A stretch of 25,688 bases of DNA from a virus (Duplodnaviria > Heunggongvirae > Uroviricota > Caudoviricetes), in the IMG/VR virus record IMGVR_UViG_2627853701_000015; one strand, given 5' to 3'. The position numbers were made by a program, and so were the translations under genes. Under the pieces are notes generated by a model. That model searched no databases and was not told where the DNA came from. It worked only from the letters and a program-made list of their open reading frames with translations. This document shows, piece after piece, positions 1,576-14,212 of this stretch (positions within the stretch are counted from its first letter, which is position 1; each line of letters begins with the position of its first letter).

Positions 1576-2532
1576 GTGACTAGTTATTCAAACTTTTCCA
1601 ATCAAATAAAAGAAACCATCAATAATAAATTCGATCATGAAATTCATGATTGGGACATTATAAAAAACTCAATCACAACTTTAATAAATAAAAATATCCA
1701 TGGTGCAGGTAGAAATATCGTTGATTTTATAGATTTAGGTAACTGGGATTTTATTTCAAACTTTTCCTTTGATGACTCTACAAGAAGACTTGAATTAGAG
1801 TGGCACCCCAATGATAAATTCCATATATATATTGAGTCCGTTGTGTTTGTCGAGTTTAATGACACTATATATGCTTTCTTAAAGGGATACTATCACAATC
1901 AGTTATCTCTAAATAGAATATATAATACAAAATGCTCTTCATGTTCATTTGAAAACTCAGGTTCTTATATGGTAGACGTTTATAGAACGGTTAAAAGAGT
2001 AAATGAGACAATCCAGACCCCAAATATAAATTGCTATACTACATGTATTTTAACAAGGCCCGCAAATGGTCATGTTACATCTACAGGCTTCTCACGAAAC
2101 CTCATGGATGCGATAAATATTTCATTAGCAGAGCACAAAATAGCCTCTTTACATAATGAAGTCATGAGTATTGAGGAATATGATCGTGATTCTTTACAAG
2201 AGAAAGGAAATACTGCCAGGAGATATTTAGAATATATTCTCATGCTTGTTAATATTCGTATAATGCATTTAAACAACGTTCAATACCAAGAGCAAATGCT
2301 AGGTAGTTTAGTTTCTGTTATTGAGGCTCTGGACTATGAACCATTAATGAAAAATGATGTTGAAATTACAAAGGACATCCTTAATGCTTGCAGCCACCAC
2401 GGGGGGGTTAGAATTGAAAAGAAAGATGTAATTTTTTCTTTGGAAGTTATTGAAAACTTAATTAAAGCCATAAAGAAAACCGACATAAATAAATTACAAC
2501 TCGATGGGATGTTTAAATCAATTCAAAAATAA
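1576..2532 (+). CDS. hypothetical protein, AT-rich accessory gene of unknown function
   Basis: 318-aa ORF with GTG start preceded by GAGG 7 nt upstream; ~30% GC against ~50% flanks; convergent with the alpha gene; no motif I can assign. Confidence 0.6.
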   Translation: MTSYSNFSNQIKETINNKFDHEIHDWDIIKNSITTLINKNIHGAGRNIVDFIDLGNWDFISNFSFDDSTRRLELEWHPNDKFHIYIESVVFVEFNDTIYAFLKGYYHNQLSLNRIYNTKCSSCSFENSGSYMVDVYRTVKRVNETIQTPNINCYTTCILTRPANGHVTSTGFSRNLMDAINISLAEHKIASLHNEVMSIEEYDRDSLQEKGNTARRYLEYILMLVNIRIMHLNNVQYQEQMLGSLVSVIEALDYEPLMKNDVEITKDILNACSHHGGVRIEKKDVIFSLEVIENLIKAIKKTDINKLQLDGMFKSIQK

Positions 2533-6367: not shown

Positions 6368-7212
6368 TTATCTACCCTCTTTAATTTCCACAACAGTCCG
6401 GATGAATTTATCCGGGTTCAGGTAGTTCCTTATTATGTGTATATAAACCACCTGCGCACGCATTTTTTATTTAGCGTCACATATTGATTTTATGGAATTT
6501 AAAGCCCGATTAAACCATATAAAATGACATAATAAATACCATGCCTGCGGACTATAAATACAGGAGCATTAATAGGAACTACCATTCACCCAGGGTTTAC
6601 TATCCTATGGGTCATTGCACCTGATAGTGCTAACCCCACCGCCAATACAGCAAGGCAGTACAACTTCTACACGAGGCCTTGCATTGCAGGCCCCAATTTC
6701 CGGGCATATTTTTGAATCGCATCCAACTTATAAACATTGGGCCTGCATAAAAACCTTGATATTAAATAACATCACCTTAAATCGTAAAATATATCCGAAT
6801 GAATCCATAAAGAACCGGACAGATCTAGTTTTATAAAAATCAGTATGAAATGCAACACCATGGCCAGAGGCGAAAATGTTATTCCCCGGCAAAAACATGC
6901 AGTCTATTTATGTGCCTGTTGAATACTCCTGAATAAGGGTGAATAGTGGTGAGGAGCAAAAAACAAATAGCTACGAGGAATAAAAAAACCACCCATTATG
7001 AAAAAATACCATAAATAATTTTATTCCCATGTGAACAGTTATGAACAGTCGATGAATACTGCCATGCCAACCCTTCACCTTATAACCTTCTGTATTACCT
7101 ATTTTTTTTACCTAAGTGAATAGTAGTGAATAGTTAAGGTAAGTCTGAAACAGCCTTAGTTAAACGAGGCCTTTTCTGGCTAGCCAAAAGAGGTCCGGGG
7201 CGGTTCAGTCTT

Positions 7213-7230
7213 TGTCTTGTCGCTCGCACA
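7213..7230 (+). promoter_or_regulatory. TGT-N12-ACA dyad, candidate Ogr/Delta activator site of the late promoter
   Basis: TGTcttgtcgctcgcACA lies ~70-90 nt upstream of the ATG at 7301; P2/P4 late promoters carry this dyad near -55. Confidence 0.5.
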
Positions 7231-7300
7231 ATGGCGTTCAATGGCAGCTTTGTATGCATCACAGCACAATTGACACCACGACAAACCACTAGGTGCTGAC

Positions 7301-8053
7301 ATGACAATCCCAGAACAGAACAATAACCCGATCGTTGAAATTTCTATCCCTGTTTCGACGCAACAGGCGCTTGAGAAAGTGAATGCCACCAAATCTGCAT
7401 GGCTTGAAGCACGTCGTCAGCAAAAAGCGGCAGCGGATAATATTGCGACAATCCGCCAGCGCCGCGCTGAAATGGAAGCCACGACGAACGCCCTGAATGA
7501 GGAGTGGCGCACGCTATTTCGTGAAAGTCAGGGCGTAGTCTCAAAGGAAATGAAAAAACTGCGCACGGAAATTGCGCTGGGACGAGAAACGCTTGAGGAT
7601 TTTGATGAGCTGCTGGCGGCTCAGGAAAGCGAAAATGCACTTTTGCCGCAGGAGGCTGCGGAATTAGCCGGAAAGTATATCCACGCGCACGACACCCTTG
7701 TGGGTATTCGCGCAAAACAAATCTGGGAAGATTTTATGCAGTCGCATGGAAAAGCACTAATCCAGACACTAAGCCTGCTCAAATCAACAATGGGCAGGGA
7801 AGCCAGCGCAGTTGTCGGTGTGGTGCATTCAGTTAATGACCCGGACACACTGCTGAAAGATTTTATTCATAAACATATCACCAGACCGGCTCTGACTAAC
7901 GATGCGATGCCCGAACAGGACCCCGTGTTTAAACTGGCGGGAGTTGCCCCGGATTATGCGGCCCGTCTGGATTTCAGTAATAAACTCTCTCCAGCAGCTA
8001 TGCATAAAATGAAGGTTCGTCAGGAACGTGCTGAGAAGGAGAAAGCAGTATGA
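7301..8053 (+). CDS. P4 Sid-like / Psu-family late protein
   Basis: 250-aa ORF with AGGTG 5 nt before the ATG; first gene of a coupled operon ahead of the psu-like and delta-like genes; size matches Sid; assignment by position and size only. Confidence 0.5.
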   Translation: MTIPEQNNNPIVEISIPVSTQQALEKVNATKSAWLEARRQQKAAADNIATIRQRRAEMEATTNALNEEWRTLFRESQGVVSKEMKKLRTEIALGRETLEDFDELLAAQESENALLPQEAAELAGKYIHAHDTLVGIRAKQIWEDFMQSHGKALIQTLSLLKSTMGREASAVVGVVHSVNDPDTLLKDFIHKHITRPALTNDAMPEQDPVFKLAGVAPDYAARLDFSNKLSPAAMHKMKVRQERAEKEKAV

Positions 8054-8601
8054 TGGCCCGAGTCACTCCAGACCAAGCGCTTATCAGTTTTAGAAATGCC
8101 CGTATTCTGTGGGCTGGACATAGTGAGAGCCGAAAAGCCGTTGAACAACAGATAGAATCACTCCTCACTGCCATGGAAAAACCAGCAGATTATGCTCGAC
8201 AGCTCGAATTACAGCGGGAACATCTGGATGTGCTGAAATGGCAAATTAACTGTGCTGCGCGCGAATGCATTTACTCGCAGCATCAACTGATGGAGGCCTG
8301 CACAGAAGACGCTCTCAGCAATTTTATGCAGGCGAATGGAGCAGCCCTGACATCTGCACTGGCTCCGTTCCTGAAGGGGCGCGGAGGGGTTGACGTTGCG
8401 TCCCGTATATTACGCAATGCTCTGGTTCGCCAGCTGGCAATAACACCGCCTGAAATTGCCGGGGATTATCGTATGATTCTGGATGAATCCGGTGTGATGC
8501 CTGACCCCATGATGGTTCGTGATTGCCAGAGCTCTTACACCCCTGCACAACAACTGCGCTTTCAGCAACGTCTGGATTACATTAACGGCATGCAGGAGTA
8601 A
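8050..8601 (+). CDS. psu: Psu-like polarity-suppression protein
   Basis: 183 aa; 'KWQINCAAR...FMQANGAALTSALAPFLKG...TPAQQLRF' resembles P4 Psu as I recall it; ATGA-coupled to the upstream gene. Confidence 0.6.
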   Translation: MMARVTPDQALISFRNARILWAGHSESRKAVEQQIESLLTAMEKPADYARQLELQREHLDVLKWQINCAARECIYSQHQLMEACTEDALSNFMQANGAALTSALAPFLKGRGGVDVASRILRNALVRQLAITPPEIAGDYRMILDESGVMPDPMMVRDCQSSYTPAQQLRFQQRLDYINGMQE

Positions 8602-8606
8602 TATTA

Positions 8607-8879
8607 ATGGCACTTAAATGTCCCGAATGCGGTACGACGGCACACGCCAGAACCTCCGCCTATGAAGCACCATCGGTTAAACGCTCATGGTATCAGTGCC
8701 AGAATCTTGAATGTTCCTACACATTTACCGCACTGGAAAGTGTGGATACGATAATCATGAAGCCCCGGCGCAATGAACAGGAATCAGAGAAAGCACAAAT
8801 GCCGGAAAAACAACAGCAAACTCTCAATCGCTATGGCTCCGCGTCAAAGCTGTCAAGCCGTCAGCAAATTCCTGTCTGA
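8607..8879 (+). CDS. Ogr/Delta-family zinc-finger late-gene activator
   Basis: 'CPECGTTAHARTSAYEAPSVKRSWYQCQNLECSYTF' is the C-x2-C...C-x4-C Ogr/Delta zinc-finger pattern; 90 aa, a single Ogr-like unit. Confidence 0.85.
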   Translation: MALKCPECGTTAHARTSAYEAPSVKRSWYQCQNLECSYTFTALESVDTIIMKPRRNEQESEKAQMPEKQQQTLNRYGSASKLSSRQQIPV

Positions 8880-8900
8880 TTAGCAAAAAAAGCCCACGTA

Positions 8901-8926
8901 ATCCCGGTCCAGTACTGGGATTTTTT
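8901..8926 (+). terminator. rho-independent terminator after the late operon
   Basis: Hairpin TCCCGG-loop-CTGGGA followed by TTTTTT, directly after the delta-like stop. Confidence 0.5.
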
Positions 8927-9232
8927 ACGCCTTTTCCCTGGCTGGCCTGAGAGCGCATGAGTGCATGTCTATAGCGCATGAAAACGCATGATTCTCATGC
9001 ACCATTTTTGACGCGAAAGCCCTTGTGTGGTGGCTTCTGAGACGATTTGCGGAATGCATGAAAACCAGTCTGTTAAGCGAAGCGAGCAGGCGTGGGGGGC
9101 TGCGCGCGCTAAGGGGTTAGATTATAAAATATCAAACGCCGGTGAGATCCATTATTGTGGAACCACCCGAAGGAAGTGTAGAGGCGAAAGTACCCAAAAT
9201 AATTTTGCAAATTATTTAGAAATGAACTGAGC

Positions 9233-9258
9233 GCTCGAAACGAAATATAATTTCGAGC
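9233..9258. repeat. inverted repeat at the 3' end of the hotspot operon
   Basis: GCTCGAAA-N10-TTTCGAGC between the hotspot operon end (9289) and the upstream module; no U-tract, so terminator function is uncertain. Confidence 0.3.
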
Positions 9259-9288
9259 ACCCCAATTAGCAGTTATATTTTTAATGTA

Positions 9289-9855
9289 TTAAACAGGATA
9301 AAAACCAGAGCTTCCATTCTTATTTAAGTTATGGATTTTATTTGCATCATTAATTTTTATTTGGAACGTCGGACCTTTATTCTCAAGAATTACAATCTGG
9401 AAATTATAGTCCCTTTTGATTAATGCGTGATAAAATGAATCACTGAGACTGACGCTATTAACATCCGATAGAGAACCCCCTCTATCTTTATCAAAGTGCG
9501 TCACTAATGGACTATCAAGCACAACAAATCCAATGAATGGATTCCCTTTTCTTGATAAAAATTCCGCAAAGCAAATGGTAAATATAGCATGCATTACTGC
9601 ACGGGTACCTTTACCAAACATTCCTCGGCGTTTCCCATTGATATTAAAGTCATATGTATCTTCGTCAAATCGCACTTTGTTATCTTTAGAATTTTCAAAA
9701 TTTATATCATTCAAAAAGTCTTGCATCGCTATTTCTATATCATACAAATCAGCTACTGTTAAGGAGTCAAAGTCCTCGGCGGAGTATTTAAGTTCGTCAA
9801 CATCATCTTCTTTATCTTGTAATGAAGATAGAATGCTATGTTTTGTGTGATCCAT
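9289..9855 (-). CDS. ABC/SMC-like ATPase, C-terminal head segment
   Basis: 188 aa; signature-like 'FGKGTRAV', Walker-B-like 'FIGFVVLDSP', D-loop-like 'THFD'; start ATG overlaps the upstream stop (TAATG at 9853-9857); ~28% GC. Confidence 0.55.
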   Translation of the reverse strand: MDHTKHSILSSLQDKEDDVDELKYSAEDFDSLTVADLYDIEIAMQDFLNDINFENSKDNKVRFDEDTYDFNINGKRRGMFGKGTRAVMHAIFTICFAEFLSRKGNPFIGFVVLDSPLVTHFDKDRGGSLSDVNSVSLSDSFYHALIKRDYNFQIVILENKGPTFQIKINDANKIHNLNKNGSSGFYPV

Positions 9856-10445
9856 TAAAAGATTGTCTTTATATTCATAAAGTGATTCAAGAGATGAATG
9901 TATTGTTTTATATTTTTATCTTCTAACGTCTTAAAATCACTTTTTTCTGATTGATAAATTTCATTAACATCATTTTTTCTTAACATAATTAATTCATGTT
10001 CGCGAACATTAGATCCGATTGATTCAATTAATCCTTTCAGCTGGCTTTTGATTTTCAATTTTTCTGCATTACACGACAAAAAACAATCATCATATGATAT
10101 TTCATTTTCTTTTTTTTGCGGTGTATTACAGAACTCACAATAAATATCTGCAAAATTATTTAAATAGAAATTCGCCTGTGATACAACATCTATTCTTTGT
10201 AGATCTATAAAGTATTGGTCTTTAAGAAGACTAAATCTTTCAATGAGTAATGATAAGTATTTTTCCCTGTCACTGATTGAATATAATTCATCACTTAACT
10301 CTTTTAATAATTGCTTCTTATCATCAAGTGCATCAACAATACCTTTCAATATATCTTTCGATGATTCAATATCTTGCTCTACTTTCTCAAGTTCTCTTGA
10401 AACAATGACTTGATCATATTCAGGATAAATTAATTGCGCTTTCAA
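9855..10445 (-). CDS. coiled-coil segment with Cys4 cluster; probably the central part of the same ATPase
   Basis: Charged heptad-like repeats; C-x2-C ... C-x3-C cluster (CEFC ... CFLSC) mid-segment; no in-frame ATG or RBS, and the frame continues upstream to a single TAA at 10476-10478 that ends the Walker A ORF. Confidence 0.45.
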   Translation of the reverse strand: MKAQLIYPEYDQVIVSRELEKVEQDIESSKDILKGIVDALDDKKQLLKELSDELYSISDREKYLSLLIERFSLLKDQYFIDLQRIDVVSQANFYLNNFADIYCEFCNTPQKKENEISYDDCFLSCNAEKLKIKSQLKGLIESIGSNVREHELIMLRKNDVNEIYQSEKSDFKTLEDKNIKQYIHLLNHFMNIKTIF

Positions 10446-10475
10446 TTCCTCATAAATATTTGCAATTTGATTTTT

Positions 10476-11108
10476 TTAAAAATATCTTGCTTTTTTATTT
10501 GGTTTTTCTGCTAAGGAGTTAGTATCATCTCTCTGAGTTAAAAGGAATTTAAATTCAGACTTTCTTTTTGTCTCCTCGCTAGGAATATCAGAAAGAATTA
10601 ACGACTTCTCAGTTAACACTCTTAATTCATCAATACAAAAAAATTCAAAAACATTATTAAGATTAAATTTATGAAGAGTATTACTTAAGTTTGTTCTTAC
10701 TTTAGCCTCTTTGAAATTCAACCTACCATAAAAGTATGATGAAAAACTCTTTTTAGACGAAGCACTTTTGGAAAAAACCATCAACAGATTAGCTTCACTA
10801 ACATTTTCAATACTCGAATCATATAATCTGTAATGGGCGCTATCCTGAAGAGACCTCTCAATTGTCATTACCCTACCTTGAAAATTAAATTCCAGATAGG
10901 CTAAATCATAACCTTGAGCATGATCGATATCTTTATTTTTTAGTTTTTCACTCCCTAATAAATATCGAATCAAATAATATATGTATGTTTTTCCAGAGTC
11001 AGAACCACCATATAAAATAGTCAATTTAGAACCAAATTCAATTATAGCATCTAATTTATTGAATCCGGTTACCTTTATTTTTCTGAACGTAAAAAAATTG
11101 TCATTCAT
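10476..11108 (-). CDS. ABC/SMC-like ATPase, N-terminal head segment (Walker A)
   Basis: 'FRKIKVTGFNKLDAIIEFGSKLTILYGGSDSGKTYIYYLIRYLLG' is the N-terminal strand plus P-loop pattern of RecF/SMC/Rad50-type ATPases; ATG at 11108 overlaps the upstream stop (ATGAATGA). Confidence 0.6.
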   Translation of the reverse strand: MNDNFFTFRKIKVTGFNKLDAIIEFGSKLTILYGGSDSGKTYIYYLIRYLLGSEKLKNKDIDHAQGYDLAYLEFNFQGRVMTIERSLQDSAHYRLYDSSIENVSEANLLMVFSKSASSKKSFSSYFYGRLNFKEAKVRTNLSNTLHKFNLNNVFEFFCIDELRVLTEKSLILSDIPSEETKRKSEFKFLLTQRDDTNSLAEKPNKKARYF

Positions 11109-11559
11109 AATTAAATTCCATATCATATTTGCCAATTTTATTTTTTATAATTGATTGCAACTGCTCATCAGGAATATCACTATATAACTTAACCACCAAA
11201 TTTATATTATGCTCCATCTGCGCAACATATTCATTATGTAGAGAATTTGTAAATGCATATGTTTTTTCAGAAGCTTTATATACAAAACCACGATGTGTAT
11301 AAATTTTTGAGGCTAGTTCATAGCCTTGCAACAAAGCCAATGATTCTAAAACAATCTCTCGTTTTAGGGCTAACTGAGCATCTCTACGGGGTATTGGAGG
11401 ATGAAGACTAATCTCTTCAGGTAAAAAATCCTTAAGATTTACTAAAATAAAATCAAAACAAATAAGCCGTTCAAGGCTTAATGAAGAAGGATAAATAGCG
11501 ACGAGCACTTTCGCCATTCGACATGCCACTTCTAAACTTGAATTATAAATTCTAACCAT
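11101..11559 (-). CDS. hypothetical small protein, middle gene of the hotspot operon
   Basis: 152 aa from the ATG at 11559, which overlaps the upstream stop (TAATG) and has GGTGAG just upstream; the ORF track extends it to a TTG at 11574. Confidence 0.5.
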   Translation of the reverse strand: MVRIYNSSLEVACRMAKVLVAIYPSSLSLERLICFDFILVNLKDFLPEEISLHPPIPRRDAQLALKREIVLESLALLQGYELASKIYTHRGFVYKASEKTYAFTNSLHNEYVAQMEHNINLVVKLYSDIPDEQLQSIIKNKIGKYDMEFNYE

Positions 11560-12176
11560 TATCTCACCGTCCAAATTACTTCACCATCATTAACCAAATG
11601 ATGGCATATTCCTTTTTTATCATTTGCTTCACATATTTTTGATAGTACTGAATGTGCAATTGGTGTCAGAACAGCCTGCTTCAAGACTGCATTACACCTA
11701 ATAAATGCATAATTATGGTCTTCATAAAAGACGGGTTCAATTGAAGATGAAATGTAACATTTCAATGCTTTGAATACATCATCTTTAAATACTTCGCGGA
11801 CAAAAACCTCAAGCGAAGATGCAAAATAAAAATCATTTCTACTATTATTAAAGTGTCGTCTGTATGGATCATCAAGCTCTAAGAAAGAACTATAAGTTTT
11901 ATTTCCATGCTCTGAATAGGCTTGAAGCAGTGCATTAACATATACAGACTCTTTTTTTGAATTGTATGTTGGAATTTCATTTGGAGGGATTCTCACGACA
12001 TACAGCTCGTTAAAGTACTTAAAATAAAGGTGTGTATTTGCAATATCATTTAAAATCAATGATAAGGGTAGAGAGTAAAAAATACTAAAATCAAAATCCT
12101 CAATATATTTTTTTATTTCATCATCTAATGGAATATCAATCTTTTTAGTTATTTTTTTGAAATTGCTGAATCCCAT
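11559..12176 (-). CDS. hypothetical protein; possibly the C-terminal part of the nuclease gene
   Basis: 205-aa ORF with no RBS, overlapping the upstream ORF by 28 nt across an A7 tract (12152-12158); a 1-nt change there would fuse the two frames into ~335 aa. Confidence 0.45.
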   Translation of the reverse strand: MGFSNFKKITKKIDIPLDDEIKKYIEDFDFSIFYSLPLSLILNDIANTHLYFKYFNELYVVRIPPNEIPTYNSKKESVYVNALLQAYSEHGNKTYSSFLELDDPYRRHFNNSRNDFYFASSLEVFVREVFKDDVFKALKCYISSSIEPVFYEDHNYAFIRCNAVLKQAVLTPIAHSVLSKICEANDKKGICHHLVNDGEVIWTVR

Positions 12177-12565
12177 GAATCAAGGACTGCTTTTTTAAGC
12201 TCGTTTTTATTTTTCAATAAATTAGAAAATGTAGTAGATAAATCATAGGGTGCCACAAAAAAGTACTTCTGAGGGATGGGATAATCACCATTCAGAGTAA
12301 AATAGATAAGTTTTCCAAACTCAACTACAACATCAGAGAACCCTAAACTTTTTTTGTACAGTTTGCATTGATAATTATCCCAAGAATAACCTTCTACGTT
12401 AGGATCCGATTTATATCCAACAACGTCTCTACCTTTATCTCCAGCTCCTCCCAAACGTTCGCTCCACGGGTAATCATCTGATTTACAGACAATAAGCCAA
12501 TCATGGACAAATACCTCCCATTGTTCATCATCCCATGTCAATATTTCCGAAAGTGGTTGAGACAC
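12149..12565 (-). CDS. Mrr-like PD-(D/E)xK restriction-endonuclease-fold domain protein
   Basis: 'WEVFVHDWL...GGAGDKGRDVVGY...YQCKLYKK' matches the Mrr catalytic-domain pattern (G-x-G-D-x-G-x-D then Q/E-x-K); GTG start with AAGGAG 7 nt upstream, 3 nt after the int stop. Confidence 0.55.
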   Translation of the reverse strand: MSQPLSEILTWDDEQWEVFVHDWLIVCKSDDYPWSERLGGAGDKGRDVVGYKSDPNVEGYSWDNYQCKLYKKSLGFSDVVVEFGKLIYFTLNGDYPIPQKYFFVAPYDLSTTFSNLLKNKNELKKAVLDSWDSAISKK

Positions 12566-12568
12566 AAA

Positions 12569-13657
12569 TTAACTCCTTTTTAGTCTTTCAAATATCAAAT
12601 TACTGTACCAGTCCATCATAGACTTCCTTCCACTAAAATATTGAGCATGGTTATAAGTCCCCCTAATAGAATTTTTATCTACATGAGCCAACTGGATTTC
12701 AATCCAAGCACTCTCAAAACCTTGCTCATGCAGGATTGTAGAAAGGGTATGACGAAAACCATGTCCAGTGACTTTTCCTCCATACCCAATACGCTTAATG
12801 GCTTGATTTATACTCGCTTCGCTCATTGGCCTATTCGGATCGTTCCGCCCTGGAAAAACATAACGATAGTTCCCTGTCATGATCTTGAGTTCATTGAGTA
12901 AATCTACCGCTTGAGATGATAAGGGCACAAGATGTGGCCTACGCATTTTCATCCTTTCAGCAGGAATTTCCCAAATAGCGTTATCCAGATCAAATTCTTG
13001 CCATAATGCCGCGCGTAATTCGATGGTTCTCACACCCGTAATCATCAGTAATTTCGTGGCTATCTGGACAAGCTTACTCCCGGAGTAACCCTCTAAGGCA
13101 CGTAGAAAATCAGGTATCTCATCAGCTTTTAGGAATGGGAAATGATTGGATTGGTGTACTTCGAGAGCGCTGGAGAGATCAGCCGCAGGATTGTACTCCG
13201 CCCTACCCGTTGCAATTGCGTAGCGAAACACCTCTCCCACAGGCCTTGTTCCGACATAAGGAAAAATGTCGTTCTTAAACGCTTCCATGATGTCTGATGC
13301 ATATCCCGCCGACCATTTAGCAGATTTAAGTTGATGCCACTCTCTGGCTATCTTTTCGAAGGCGTTCTCTGACTCTGTTTGCATAGCTAGCTTTTGCTCT
13401 TTTCGAACCTCACTAGGGTTCTTTCCTTCTGCCACAAGTTTTCGAGCTTCATCACGACGGGAACGAGCATCGGCAAGGGTGATCGTTGGGTAAACACCAA
13501 GCGAGATCATTTTGGGTTTGCCGGCATAGCGATAGCGGAACCGCCAACTCTTGCTTCCATTAGGTTCTATAAGTAATGACAACCCTAGCCCATCTCCAAA
13601 TGTATAGGCTTTAGCTTCAGGCTTAGCGCGGCGAATCTGCATATCGTTTAAAGGCAT
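12569..13657 (-). CDS. int: P4-type tyrosine integrase
   Basis: N-terminus 'AKPEAKAYTFGDGLGLSLLIEPNGSKSWRFRY', catalytic region 'GHGFRHTLST...AHVDKNSIRGTYNHAQY' (R..H-x-x-R...Y); directly downstream of a tRNA 3' end. Start set at the internal ATG (MPLND...); the ORF track extends to 13708. Confidence 0.9.
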   Translation of the reverse strand: MPLNDMQIRRAKPEAKAYTFGDGLGLSLLIEPNGSKSWRFRYRYAGKPKMISLGVYPTITLADARSRRDEARKLVAEGKNPSEVRKEQKLAMQTESENAFEKIAREWHQLKSAKWSAGYASDIMEAFKNDIFPYVGTRPVGEVFRYAIATGRAEYNPAADLSSALEVHQSNHFPFLKADEIPDFLRALEGYSGSKLVQIATKLLMITGVRTIELRAALWQEFDLDNAIWEIPAERMKMRRPHLVPLSSQAVDLLNELKIMTGNYRYVFPGRNDPNRPMSEASINQAIKRIGYGGKVTGHGFRHTLSTILHEQGFESAWIEIQLAHVDKNSIRGTYNHAQYFSGRKSMMDWYSNLIFERLKRS

Positions 13658-13709
13658 GTGTATAGGAATCCAGACCGAACAGGAACATATACACAATCCT
13701 ATACACATT

Positions 13710-13819
13710 CAGTACCGGATTCTACTGGATGGTTACGGACTACTATGGACTTAAAAGAATAAAAAATGTTATAAATCAGAGATTTTATGGACTAATACGG
13801 ACGTTTGAGGAAGTTGAGA
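13710..13819. repeat. att arm region with short direct repeats
   Basis: Repeated GGACTAC/TATGGACT/TACGGAC words between the int start and the tRNA core, as expected for integrase arm-type sites. Confidence 0.35.
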
Positions 13820-13865
13820 TGGTGCCGATAATAGGAGTCGAACCTACGACCTTCGCATTACGAAT
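13820..13865 (-). other. 3' 46 nt of a tRNA-Thr(CGU) gene: att core, not an intact tRNA
   Basis: Reverse complement TTCGTAATGCGAAGGTCGTAGGTTCGACTCCTATTATCGGCACCA has half the anticodon stem, CGU anticodon loop, T-arm GGTTCGACTCC, acceptor 3' strand and CCA; sequence 5' of it (>13865) is not tRNA. Confidence 0.7.
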
Positions 13866-14212
13866 TATAAGAATCCGCTTCTAATTCAAAGCATTACCCC
13901 ATCAACACTGCGCTCACACGTCCCACCACATCAAAACATGTAAAGCCTTGCAAGCCATTGCGAGGCCTTATGTGTCTCAGTTTTGTCCCACCTTGTATTA
14001 CGACTTGCATAGCCAATGAAGATAAACGTGACGACAAACGGCGCAGCAGTCTTCTTTTCTTTCACGACTTCTCCAGCATGCATACCTTTCTGCCATGACT
14101 GAAGTGAATGCCTGTTATGAGCAAGGATTGGCCCAGATGAATCGCCCTGGACTGTTGCGATCGTGAAGCCATAGACTGGGCCGCAAGCACGGGAGGTTAC
14201 GATAAAGCGACA

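Follow-up and report, generated by a model that had tools for sequence, protein, structure and literature searches.

The window analysed here is a stretch of 25,688 nucleotides (nt) from the IMG/VR virus record IMGVR_UViG_2627853701_000015, and its positions 9289-12565 very probably hold a decayed Lamassu defence operon of type II (the 'short', or ABC-three component, ABC-3C, type; gene order lmuA-lmuC-lmuB), carried as satellite cargo between an integrase gene and a delta gene. The whole window is 100% identical to Escherichia coli O157:H7 strain SS52 (NZ_CP010304.1), and to no other strain. It covers a P4-like satellite prophage (called Sp2 in Sakai, where the annotation reads 'prophage Sp2, P4-like phage') and the adjoining remnant of Sp1. 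The 3.3-kb block lies between an Ogr/Delta gene and a P4-type integrase gene (int), and its GC content is 0.28-0.34 over 9501-12500, against 0.45-0.51 at 7001-9000 and 0.40-0.48 at 12501-13500. It contains six open reading frames (ORFs), all on the minus strand and co-directional with int: 12149-12565, 11559-12176, 11101-11574, 10476-11135, 9855-10445 and 9289-9855. Both the AT-rich block in this position and the six co-directional ORFs had been described in an original prediction made from the letters alone, and both are confirmed. The same prediction took the block for a six-ORF operon; here the PADLOC coordinates and the intact relatives give three genes, two of which are broken.

Profile coordinates continue from one ORF to the next, so that the six ORFs resolve into three proteins. 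The LmuA profile of PADLOC (PDLC03852, 336 positions) is matched over positions 10-140 by ORF 12149-12565 (E 9e-41) and over positions 141-333 by ORF 11559-12176 (E 3.9e-44). ORF 11101-11574 covers positions 9-155 of the 156 in the LmuC profile PDLC03871 (E 2.5e-36). The LmuB profile PDLC03863 (610 positions) is shared out among the last three ORFs: positions 3-199 on 10476-11135 (E 8.4e-50), 231-412 on 9855-10445 (E 1.6e-21) and 428-608 on 9289-9855 (E 5.1e-37). The lmuA pseudogene (11559-12565) is thus made of an ORF for a probable Mrr-like PD-(D/E)xK nuclease (138 amino acids, aa; GTG start) and a 205-aa ORF for a CTD6 domain, with a frameshift between them. The only intact gene is lmuC (11101-11559), which encodes the 152-aa ABC-3C middle component 2 and lies between the other two in a single co-directional operon with overlapping junctions. 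The lmuB pseudogene (9289-11108) encodes, once repaired, a Rad50/SMC-like ABC ATPase of 606 aa, now parted into a Walker A head (10476-11135), a coiled coil with a CxxC hook (9855-10445) and a C-terminal head with the Walker B sequence VVLDS (9289-9855). By descent the locus is a member of the Lamassu family: the LmuA profile is covered from 10 to 333 of 336 over two fragments that include CTD6, and the LmuB profile from 3 to 608 of 610 over three fragments with their invariant motifs present. Yet it is a pseudo-operon.

Pfam agrees with these assignments. CTD6 of ABC-3C is found on the 205-aa ORF (E 7.7e-30), MC2 on LmuC (E 6e-30) and AAA_23, above its cut-off, on the first ATPase piece; DUF3732 on the last piece reaches 23.2 bits, slightly below its 25-bit cut-off. 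An NCBIfam search of LmuC, an intact LmuB and an intact LmuA homologue gave no match. Two of the ORFs already bear ABC-3C labels from PGAP ('ABC-three component system protein' and 'middle component 2') and a third is called 'AAA family ATPase', while ECs_0293 is flagged as an AAA-ATPase pseudogene in the Sakai annotation. The profile searches that the original prediction had proposed as a check gave significant nuclease-system and ABC-ATPase matches in PADLOC and Pfam, with PADLOC E-values from 1e-21 to 1e-50 for LmuA, LmuC and LmuB. Its inference of a Lamassu-like layout of nuclease, small subunit and SMC-like ATPase is verified by the profiles, by a fold search and by orthologous operons that are still intact, and its small 152-aa protein is LmuC, by both PADLOC and the MC2 domain. 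The three-piece ABC ATPase, with Walker A head, coiled coil and C-terminal head, was also correctly seen, except that the pieces belong to one broken lmuB. What had been overlooked is that the 205-aa ORF is the C-terminal docking and oligomerisation domain of LmuA, CTD6, cut off from its nuclease. A further suggestion, that the system could be divergent or new, does not hold, given the PADLOC matches with E down to 8e-50, the PGAP labels and an allele of O55:H7 that is already published (PMC11754643).

The true junctions of the operon are tight. TAATG at 11561-11557 overlaps the lmuC ATG with the lmuA stop, and ATGAATGA at 11108-11101 overlaps the lmuB start with the lmuC stop. These two stop/start overlaps had been correctly noted; another, TAATG at 9855, turns out to be an internal Leu-Met in intact relatives. 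Upstream, TTT separates the int stop TAA (12571-12569) from the lmuA GTG at 12565. The Shine-Dalgarno-like site AAGGAG for lmuA lies at 12573-12578 on the minus strand, within the last int codons and 7 nt before the GTG; that spacing had been given rightly, but it is the GTG, and not AAGGAG, that comes 3 nt after the stop. Given this placement, lmuA would be transcribed together with int or from a promoter that lies within int. A promoter scan found 21 sites against 20.5 expected, hence no excess. At the other end, a consensus scan gave a terminator-like hairpin of 13 pairs at 9229-9262 (minus strand), 27 nt after the lmuB stop, where the operon probably ends. Terminator-like sites are enriched over 8800-14000 as a whole (10 against 2.5 expected).

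We examined the motifs and folds of the two larger proteins. In LmuA, the family motif G-D-x-G-x-D ... Q-C-K is invariant among homologues, and Mrr_cat (PF04471) is matched by 4 of the 25 LmuA homologues at E <= 0.01; three full-length family members rescanned singly (P0080, P0140 and P0156) pass the gathering score of that domain with 25-28.6 bits. For the N-terminal fragment of the window, Mrr_cat is the sole Pfam match (E 0.2), and its 12.2 bits stay below the cut-off of 21. The Mrr-like assignment of the N-terminal domain, part of the original prediction, holds at family level, from motif and profile evidence. An AlphaFold2 model was made for P0038, an LmuA homologue 68% identical to that of the window (pLDDT 92.7). 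Its top fold matches in the PDB are the LmuA chains 9nxx, 9ny1, 9hqx and 9uxi, followed by the nucleases Cap4, MspJI and FokI; the Foldseek probability against solved LmuA chains is up to 1.0, with ~10% identity in the fold alignment.

In LmuB, the invariant residues of the homologues are all present in the window sequence: Walker A (G34, S36, G39, K40), C324-x2-C327 and D532-S533-P534 (Walker B/D-loop). A 'Cys4 cluster' had been proposed for the coiled coil; only its first CxxC (C324, C327) is invariant in homologues, and the rest is not. The Walker B sequence VVLDS agrees with the hhhhD[Q/S/T/E] pattern of 'short Lamassu' (PMC12663957). A profile of LmuB homologues finds Lamassu LmuB chains in the PDB (9hqu_A at E 1.7e-17, 9uxl and 9ny5), and also Rad50 and SMC heads at E 8e-8 to 1e-6. 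Single-sequence phmmer searches of LmuA and LmuB against the PDB gave no significant match, and the LmuA family profile gave only chance-level matches there (E >= 0.06).

Four intact type II orthologues reveal what the operon once was: one of Proteus mirabilis (L006), one of Pantoea alhagi CP019706 (L007) and two on Logan contigs (L008 and L009). They have the same gene order and the same overlapping junctions as the window, and each has three uninterrupted frames, of 335, 152 and 606 aa (the lmuA frame counts 336 codons). The ancestral state was therefore three genes. Identities of the window to L006 and L007 are, respectively, 96% and 90% for the N-terminal part of LmuA, 90% and 84% for its C-terminal part, 91% and 82% for LmuC, and 88% and 76% for LmuB; LmuC is 81-91% identical to its relatives across all 152 aa. 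In contrast to these intact operons, the window copy is broken by a frameshift in lmuA and by a nonsense codon and a frameshift in lmuB. L007-L009 also share the setting: beside proBA, in an element that has an alpha-type primase, the operon is flanked by a P4-type int on one side and by delta/psu/sid on the other.

The lesion in lmuA (12149-12158, minus strand) is a 1-nt deletion. The sequence reads TCA AAA AAA TAA, with an A7 run at 12158-12152 and a premature stop at 12151-12149; DNA alignment with L006, L007 and L008 places a single gap column at ~12156, where the relatives read AAT/AAG AAA ATA in frame. In lmuB, on the same strand, the nonsense codon TAA at 10476-10478 stands for an ancestral TTA (Leu), which is kept in O55:H7 DEC5D and TB182A, in O157:H7 LSU61 and in the Proteus operon. 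The lmuB frameshift is a 1-nt deletion in an A-run at 9913-9918 (A6 to A5), with its gap column at 9918 against the same three relatives. A frameshift in the T-run at TAATG 9855 was considered and ruled out: there is no indel at that place relative to the intact operons, and the real frameshift lies ~60 nt upstream.

Three single-base edits in all restore LmuA (335 aa) and LmuB (606 aa). One added A yields the former; two edits yield the latter, which then aligns without gaps to the Proteus mirabilis protein P0001 (87.8%) and to the Pantoea alhagi protein P0002 (75.6%). A search with a conceptually repaired LmuB retrieved the same two full-length 606-aa proteins, at 86% and 74%. The fragments, which had been taken as pieces to be joined across frames, are thus the result of pseudogenisation, as the lesions relative to intact relatives make clear.

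Two observations concern databases. Intact lmuA is called short by gene callers, at 9113-9550 in L006 (145 aa) and at 8945-9550 in L007 (201 aa), since the gene in fact begins with GTG; the frame has no interruption. Full-length LmuA of this subfamily is consequently under-represented in protein databases. In addition, the 344-aa database protein P0027 contains a Pfam MC2 domain and matches the N-terminal 35% of LmuB at 96% identity. In some assembly, lmuC apparently reads through into lmuB and yields this fusion, as would fit indels in the T-run close to where lmuB begins.

Some sequencing platforms tend to err in A-runs, where two of the three lesions are found, and one could ask whether the genes are in truth intact and the interruptions no more than homopolymer errors of sequencing or assembly. 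This has next to no probability in our estimate: all 309 complete records with the locus, which were sequenced independently and include Sakai and EDL933, show the same frameshifts, and the third lesion, a substitution, is distributed coherently over the phylogeny. The frameshifts were genotyped in these 309 E. coli records with 81-nt queries that carry a repaired junction. For lmuA as for lmuB, the query matched 309/309 records at 98.8% and none at 100%.

These counts bear also on recoding or phase variation, in which -1 ribosomal or transcriptional slippage would yield low amounts of the full-length proteins, or the runs would serve as reversible ON/OFF switches of a toxic abortive-infection system. 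The break in lmuA does look the part, being a perfect X_XXY_YYZ heptamer (A_AAA_AAA, 12158-12152) directly before the stop, with -1 as the shift needed, and homopolymer lengths do vary at 9941-9947 (A5/A6/A7) and at ~11097. The slippery run, however, is not conserved in the relatives (AAT/AAG AAA ATA) and is hence a by-product of the deletion; the lmuB frameshift has no slippery heptamer (GAT AAA AAT); the TAA nonsense codon would not be rescued by any of this; the run-length variants observed restore no full frame; and 0/309 records are 'ON' at either frameshift. We regard recoding as highly improbable.

The run-length variants themselves are as follows. The A-run at 9941-9947 is A6 in the window, A5 in O55:H7 DEC5D and TB182A, and A7 in LSU61 and ERL04-3476; none of these restores a full frame, and +1 at 9947 meets a TGA at 9939-9937. 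Near the lmuB start, the T-run at ~11091-11097 is T7 in the window and T6 in OkiPb01699. Part of this variation may be long-read assembly error rather than biology.

Of 5426 complete E. coli genomes, 309 carry the locus, never at less than 99% identity, and all the carriers inspected are O157:H7 or O55:H7. With the intact L008 operon as a megablast query, the complete E. coli genomes gave no intact copy; the matches were the same O157/O55 loci, at ~79% identity. The nonsense codon was genotyped over the 309 records with an asymmetric 99-nt query: codon 10476-10478 is TAA in 299 and TTA in 10, namely seven O55:H7 strains, FDAARGOS_946, O157 strain 493/89 and O157:H7 LSU61. Since both frameshifts are common to the O55:H7 and O157:H7 alleles, they most likely predate the split of the two; the nonsense codon is later and arose on the branch to typical O157:H7. 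Within the clade there are 13 point differences, 10 of them amino-acid-changing (nonsense included) and 3 synonymous, a ratio as expected without purifying selection, which suggests relaxed constraint.

Single O157:H7 strains show further erosion of the relic. In NZ_CP089032.1, NZ_CP017436.1 and NZ_CP038374.1, the locus is interrupted by IS1203 or reduced by deletions to 88% or 12%. The same fragmented lmuB, in three pieces and at 99.7% identity, occurs in NZ_CP044147.1, the one place where the locus turned up among plasmids; this E. coli record of 46.9 kb is possibly a chromosomal contig that was misassigned.

The locus has in fact been published under another name. 'Lamassu-var', described with Domainator by Johnson et al. 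2024 (PMC11754643), is the same locus in O55:H7 TB182A (CP038295, 4116517-4120474). Its insert is collinear with 8607-12565 of the window, from which it differs at 11 positions, and both frameshifts (lmuA and lmuB 9918) are common to the two. The O55 allele keeps TTA at 10477, hence no nonsense codon, and has an extra -1 at 9946. According to PMC11754643, Lamassu-var is the commonest cluster in E. coli psu-int hotspots, with 259 loci of '3 to 9 CDSs'; the words 'frameshift' and 'pseudogene' are absent from its text.

Taken at face value, such a variant would be a functional split-gene Lamassu: its fragments would be translated separately and assemble non-covalently, the nuclease and CTD6 acting in trans, to give a weak but real defence, with the N- and C-terminal halves of the ABC head reconstituting as those of Rad50 do. 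The six ORFs are indeed all still open and stand as PGAP coding sequences in ~300 genomes, the lmuB break falls at ~residue 398, near the junction of coiled coil and C-terminal head, and the cloned O55:H7 allele of this very locus is reported to make T-even plaques smaller (PMC11754643). We nonetheless judge this account unlikely. In all relatives examined outside E. coli, each gene is a single unbroken frame, and the split is limited to one clonal lineage. The splits are 1-nt homopolymer deletions and a nonsense substitution, with no acquired start sites; the downstream fragments lack a convincing Shine-Dalgarno site or start, having a TTG at 10445 and an ATG at 9855, the latter an internal Met in relatives. 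In the O157 allele the nonsense codon also parts the Walker A head from the coiled coil. Separation of the nuclease from CTD6 abolishes sequestration and tetramerisation, both required by the published mechanism, and the non-synonymous to synonymous ratio of 10:3 suggests that purifying selection does not maintain the pieces.

That mechanism is known from homologous systems (10.1101/2025.03.14.643221, 10.1101/2025.06.23.660979 and PMC12663957), from which the following steps are taken. In an intact operon of this kind, LmuB, an ABC ATPase that resembles Rad50 and has a coiled coil and a CxxC zinc hook, would form a dimer that, together with LmuC, keeps one LmuA monomer inactive through the LmuA C-terminal domain. 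When phage DNA ends or replication intermediates meet the complex, LmuA would be set free. It would then tetramerise through its C-terminal domain into an active non-specific nuclease, and its PD-(D/E)xK domain (here Mrr-like, with predicted catalytic residues D43/D47...Q66-x-K68) would degrade DNA, so that the infection is aborted. The breaks of the window fall between the nuclease and the C-terminal domain, between the Walker A head and the coiled coil, and between the coiled coil and the C-terminal head. With nuclease, heads and coiled coil severed from one another, we consider the system inactive: in the SS52 genome it is in all likelihood a non-functional relic, to judge from its lesions. 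We infer that the relic is kept since the lineage is young and clonal, not through selection. The defence system of the original prediction thus stands as Lamassu by descent, most likely no longer active in this genome.

Several points weigh against inactivity. The cloned O55:H7 TB182A allele gave smaller plaques of T2, T4, T6 and RB69, as reported in PMC11754643, and the substitution ratio is based on just 13 substitutions; some residual activity of the fragmented system is thus conceivable. With the plaque result belong three circumstances of the experiment. The effect is described in PMC11754643 only at the highest dilutions. Of the lmuA start codon, the cloned insert includes just the first base, so that the native Shine-Dalgarno site (inside int) and all upstream sequence are missing. 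The allele tested is that of O55:H7, and mutant controls for the T-even phenotype were not found in the passages of PMC11754643 consulted. Residual activity could take the form of an attenuated Lamassu of low toxicity, in which low-level -1 slippage on A_AAA_AAA-TAA gives some full-length LmuA and the LmuB pieces, translated separately, reassemble into a Rad50-like head. If true, it would explain the weak T-even phenotype of the O55:H7 allele. We find this very unlikely, and even less likely for the O157:H7 allele of the window, with its nonsense codon after the Walker A head.

The surroundings of the relic are those of a P4-like cargo hotspot, with int on one side, delta, psu and sid on the other, and an alpha-type primase in the same element. 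The cargo slot is bounded by int (12569-13657, minus strand), a P4-type tyrosine integrase gene with the Pfam domains Arm-DNA-bind_3, Phage_int_M and Phage_integrase, and at its far end by delta (8607-8879, plus strand; Ogr_Delta, E 1e-16). Beyond delta follow, on the plus strand, psu (8050-8601) and a Sid-like gene of the Psu family (7301-8053), both recognised by Pfam Psu (the matches in the window have E 7.1e-10 and 4.8e-42). The primase combines Zn_Ribbon_Prim, Toprim_3, D5_N and Pox_D5. These domains (Ogr_Delta, Psu twice, integrase and primase) confirm the delta/psu-int hotspot of P4 type that the original prediction had recognised. PMC11754643 reports that the Psu of this element is only ~31% identical to that of P4 and views the element as a more distant satellite.

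The integrase of SS52 (WP_039102349.1, 362 aa) has a 93-nt in-frame deletion and loses 31 aa (EIKPLELLNVLRKIEKRGALEKMRKVRQRCS) of the central Phage_int_M domain. The gene forms a single match of 1335 nt in SS52, against a span of 1428 nt in the other O157 strains listed, and the deletion is also evident in an alignment with the L008 integrase. Excision of the satellite may have been lost in SS52 through this deletion. A second AT-rich patch, with GC 0.28-0.34, lies at 1001-2500. Its 318-aa ORF (1576-2532, plus strand) is ECs_0304 of Sakai, a 'hypothetical protein', had no match in Pfam, PADLOC or NCBIfam, and could be an uncharacterised cargo gene.

The three-component architecture of the locus is that of structurally solved Lamassu systems: LmuACB of Salmonella enterica (9hqu and 9hqx) and DdmABC/LmuACB of Vibrio cholerae (9ny5, 9nxx and 9uxh-l). 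Like the window, these combine an LmuB with Walker A, a CxxC hook and a deviant Walker B, and an LmuA with a PD-(D/E)xK nuclease and a helical C-terminal domain. The kinship is remote nonetheless: the V. cholerae LmuA nuclease is of Cap4 type (PMC12663957), while the family of the window is Mrr-like, and the middle component is MC2 here, against an MC3 motif cited in the V. cholerae preprint. With Rad50/SbcC-Mre11/SbcD, LmuB has in common the ABC head, the coiled coil and the zinc hook, and an origin of Lamassu from SbcCD has been proposed (PMC12663957). Unlike those complexes, the locus has no Mre11-like partner; in its stead stand a small middle component and a toxic effector that is sequestered.

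The kind of system found here is already known and published. What is added is the finding that Lamassu-var is an ordinary type II Lamassu that has undergone pseudogenisation, with its steps of decay dated. The 'most abundant Lamassu variant', with its 259 loci, is apparently one clonal frameshifted pseudo-operon, over-represented because O157:H7 is heavily sequenced. Defence-system counts and claims of new variants that rest on Lamassu-var should be read with caution. Defence pseudogenes are reported to be rare (<1%) in P4 hotspots, with cargo swapped before it decays (PMC13586616); this locus is a counter-example, in which two frameshifts, then a nonsense codon, and then strain-level insertion sequence and deletion events accumulated from O55:H7 to O157:H7. 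For the biology of O157:H7, it would probably be wrong to list this locus among the active defences against phages.

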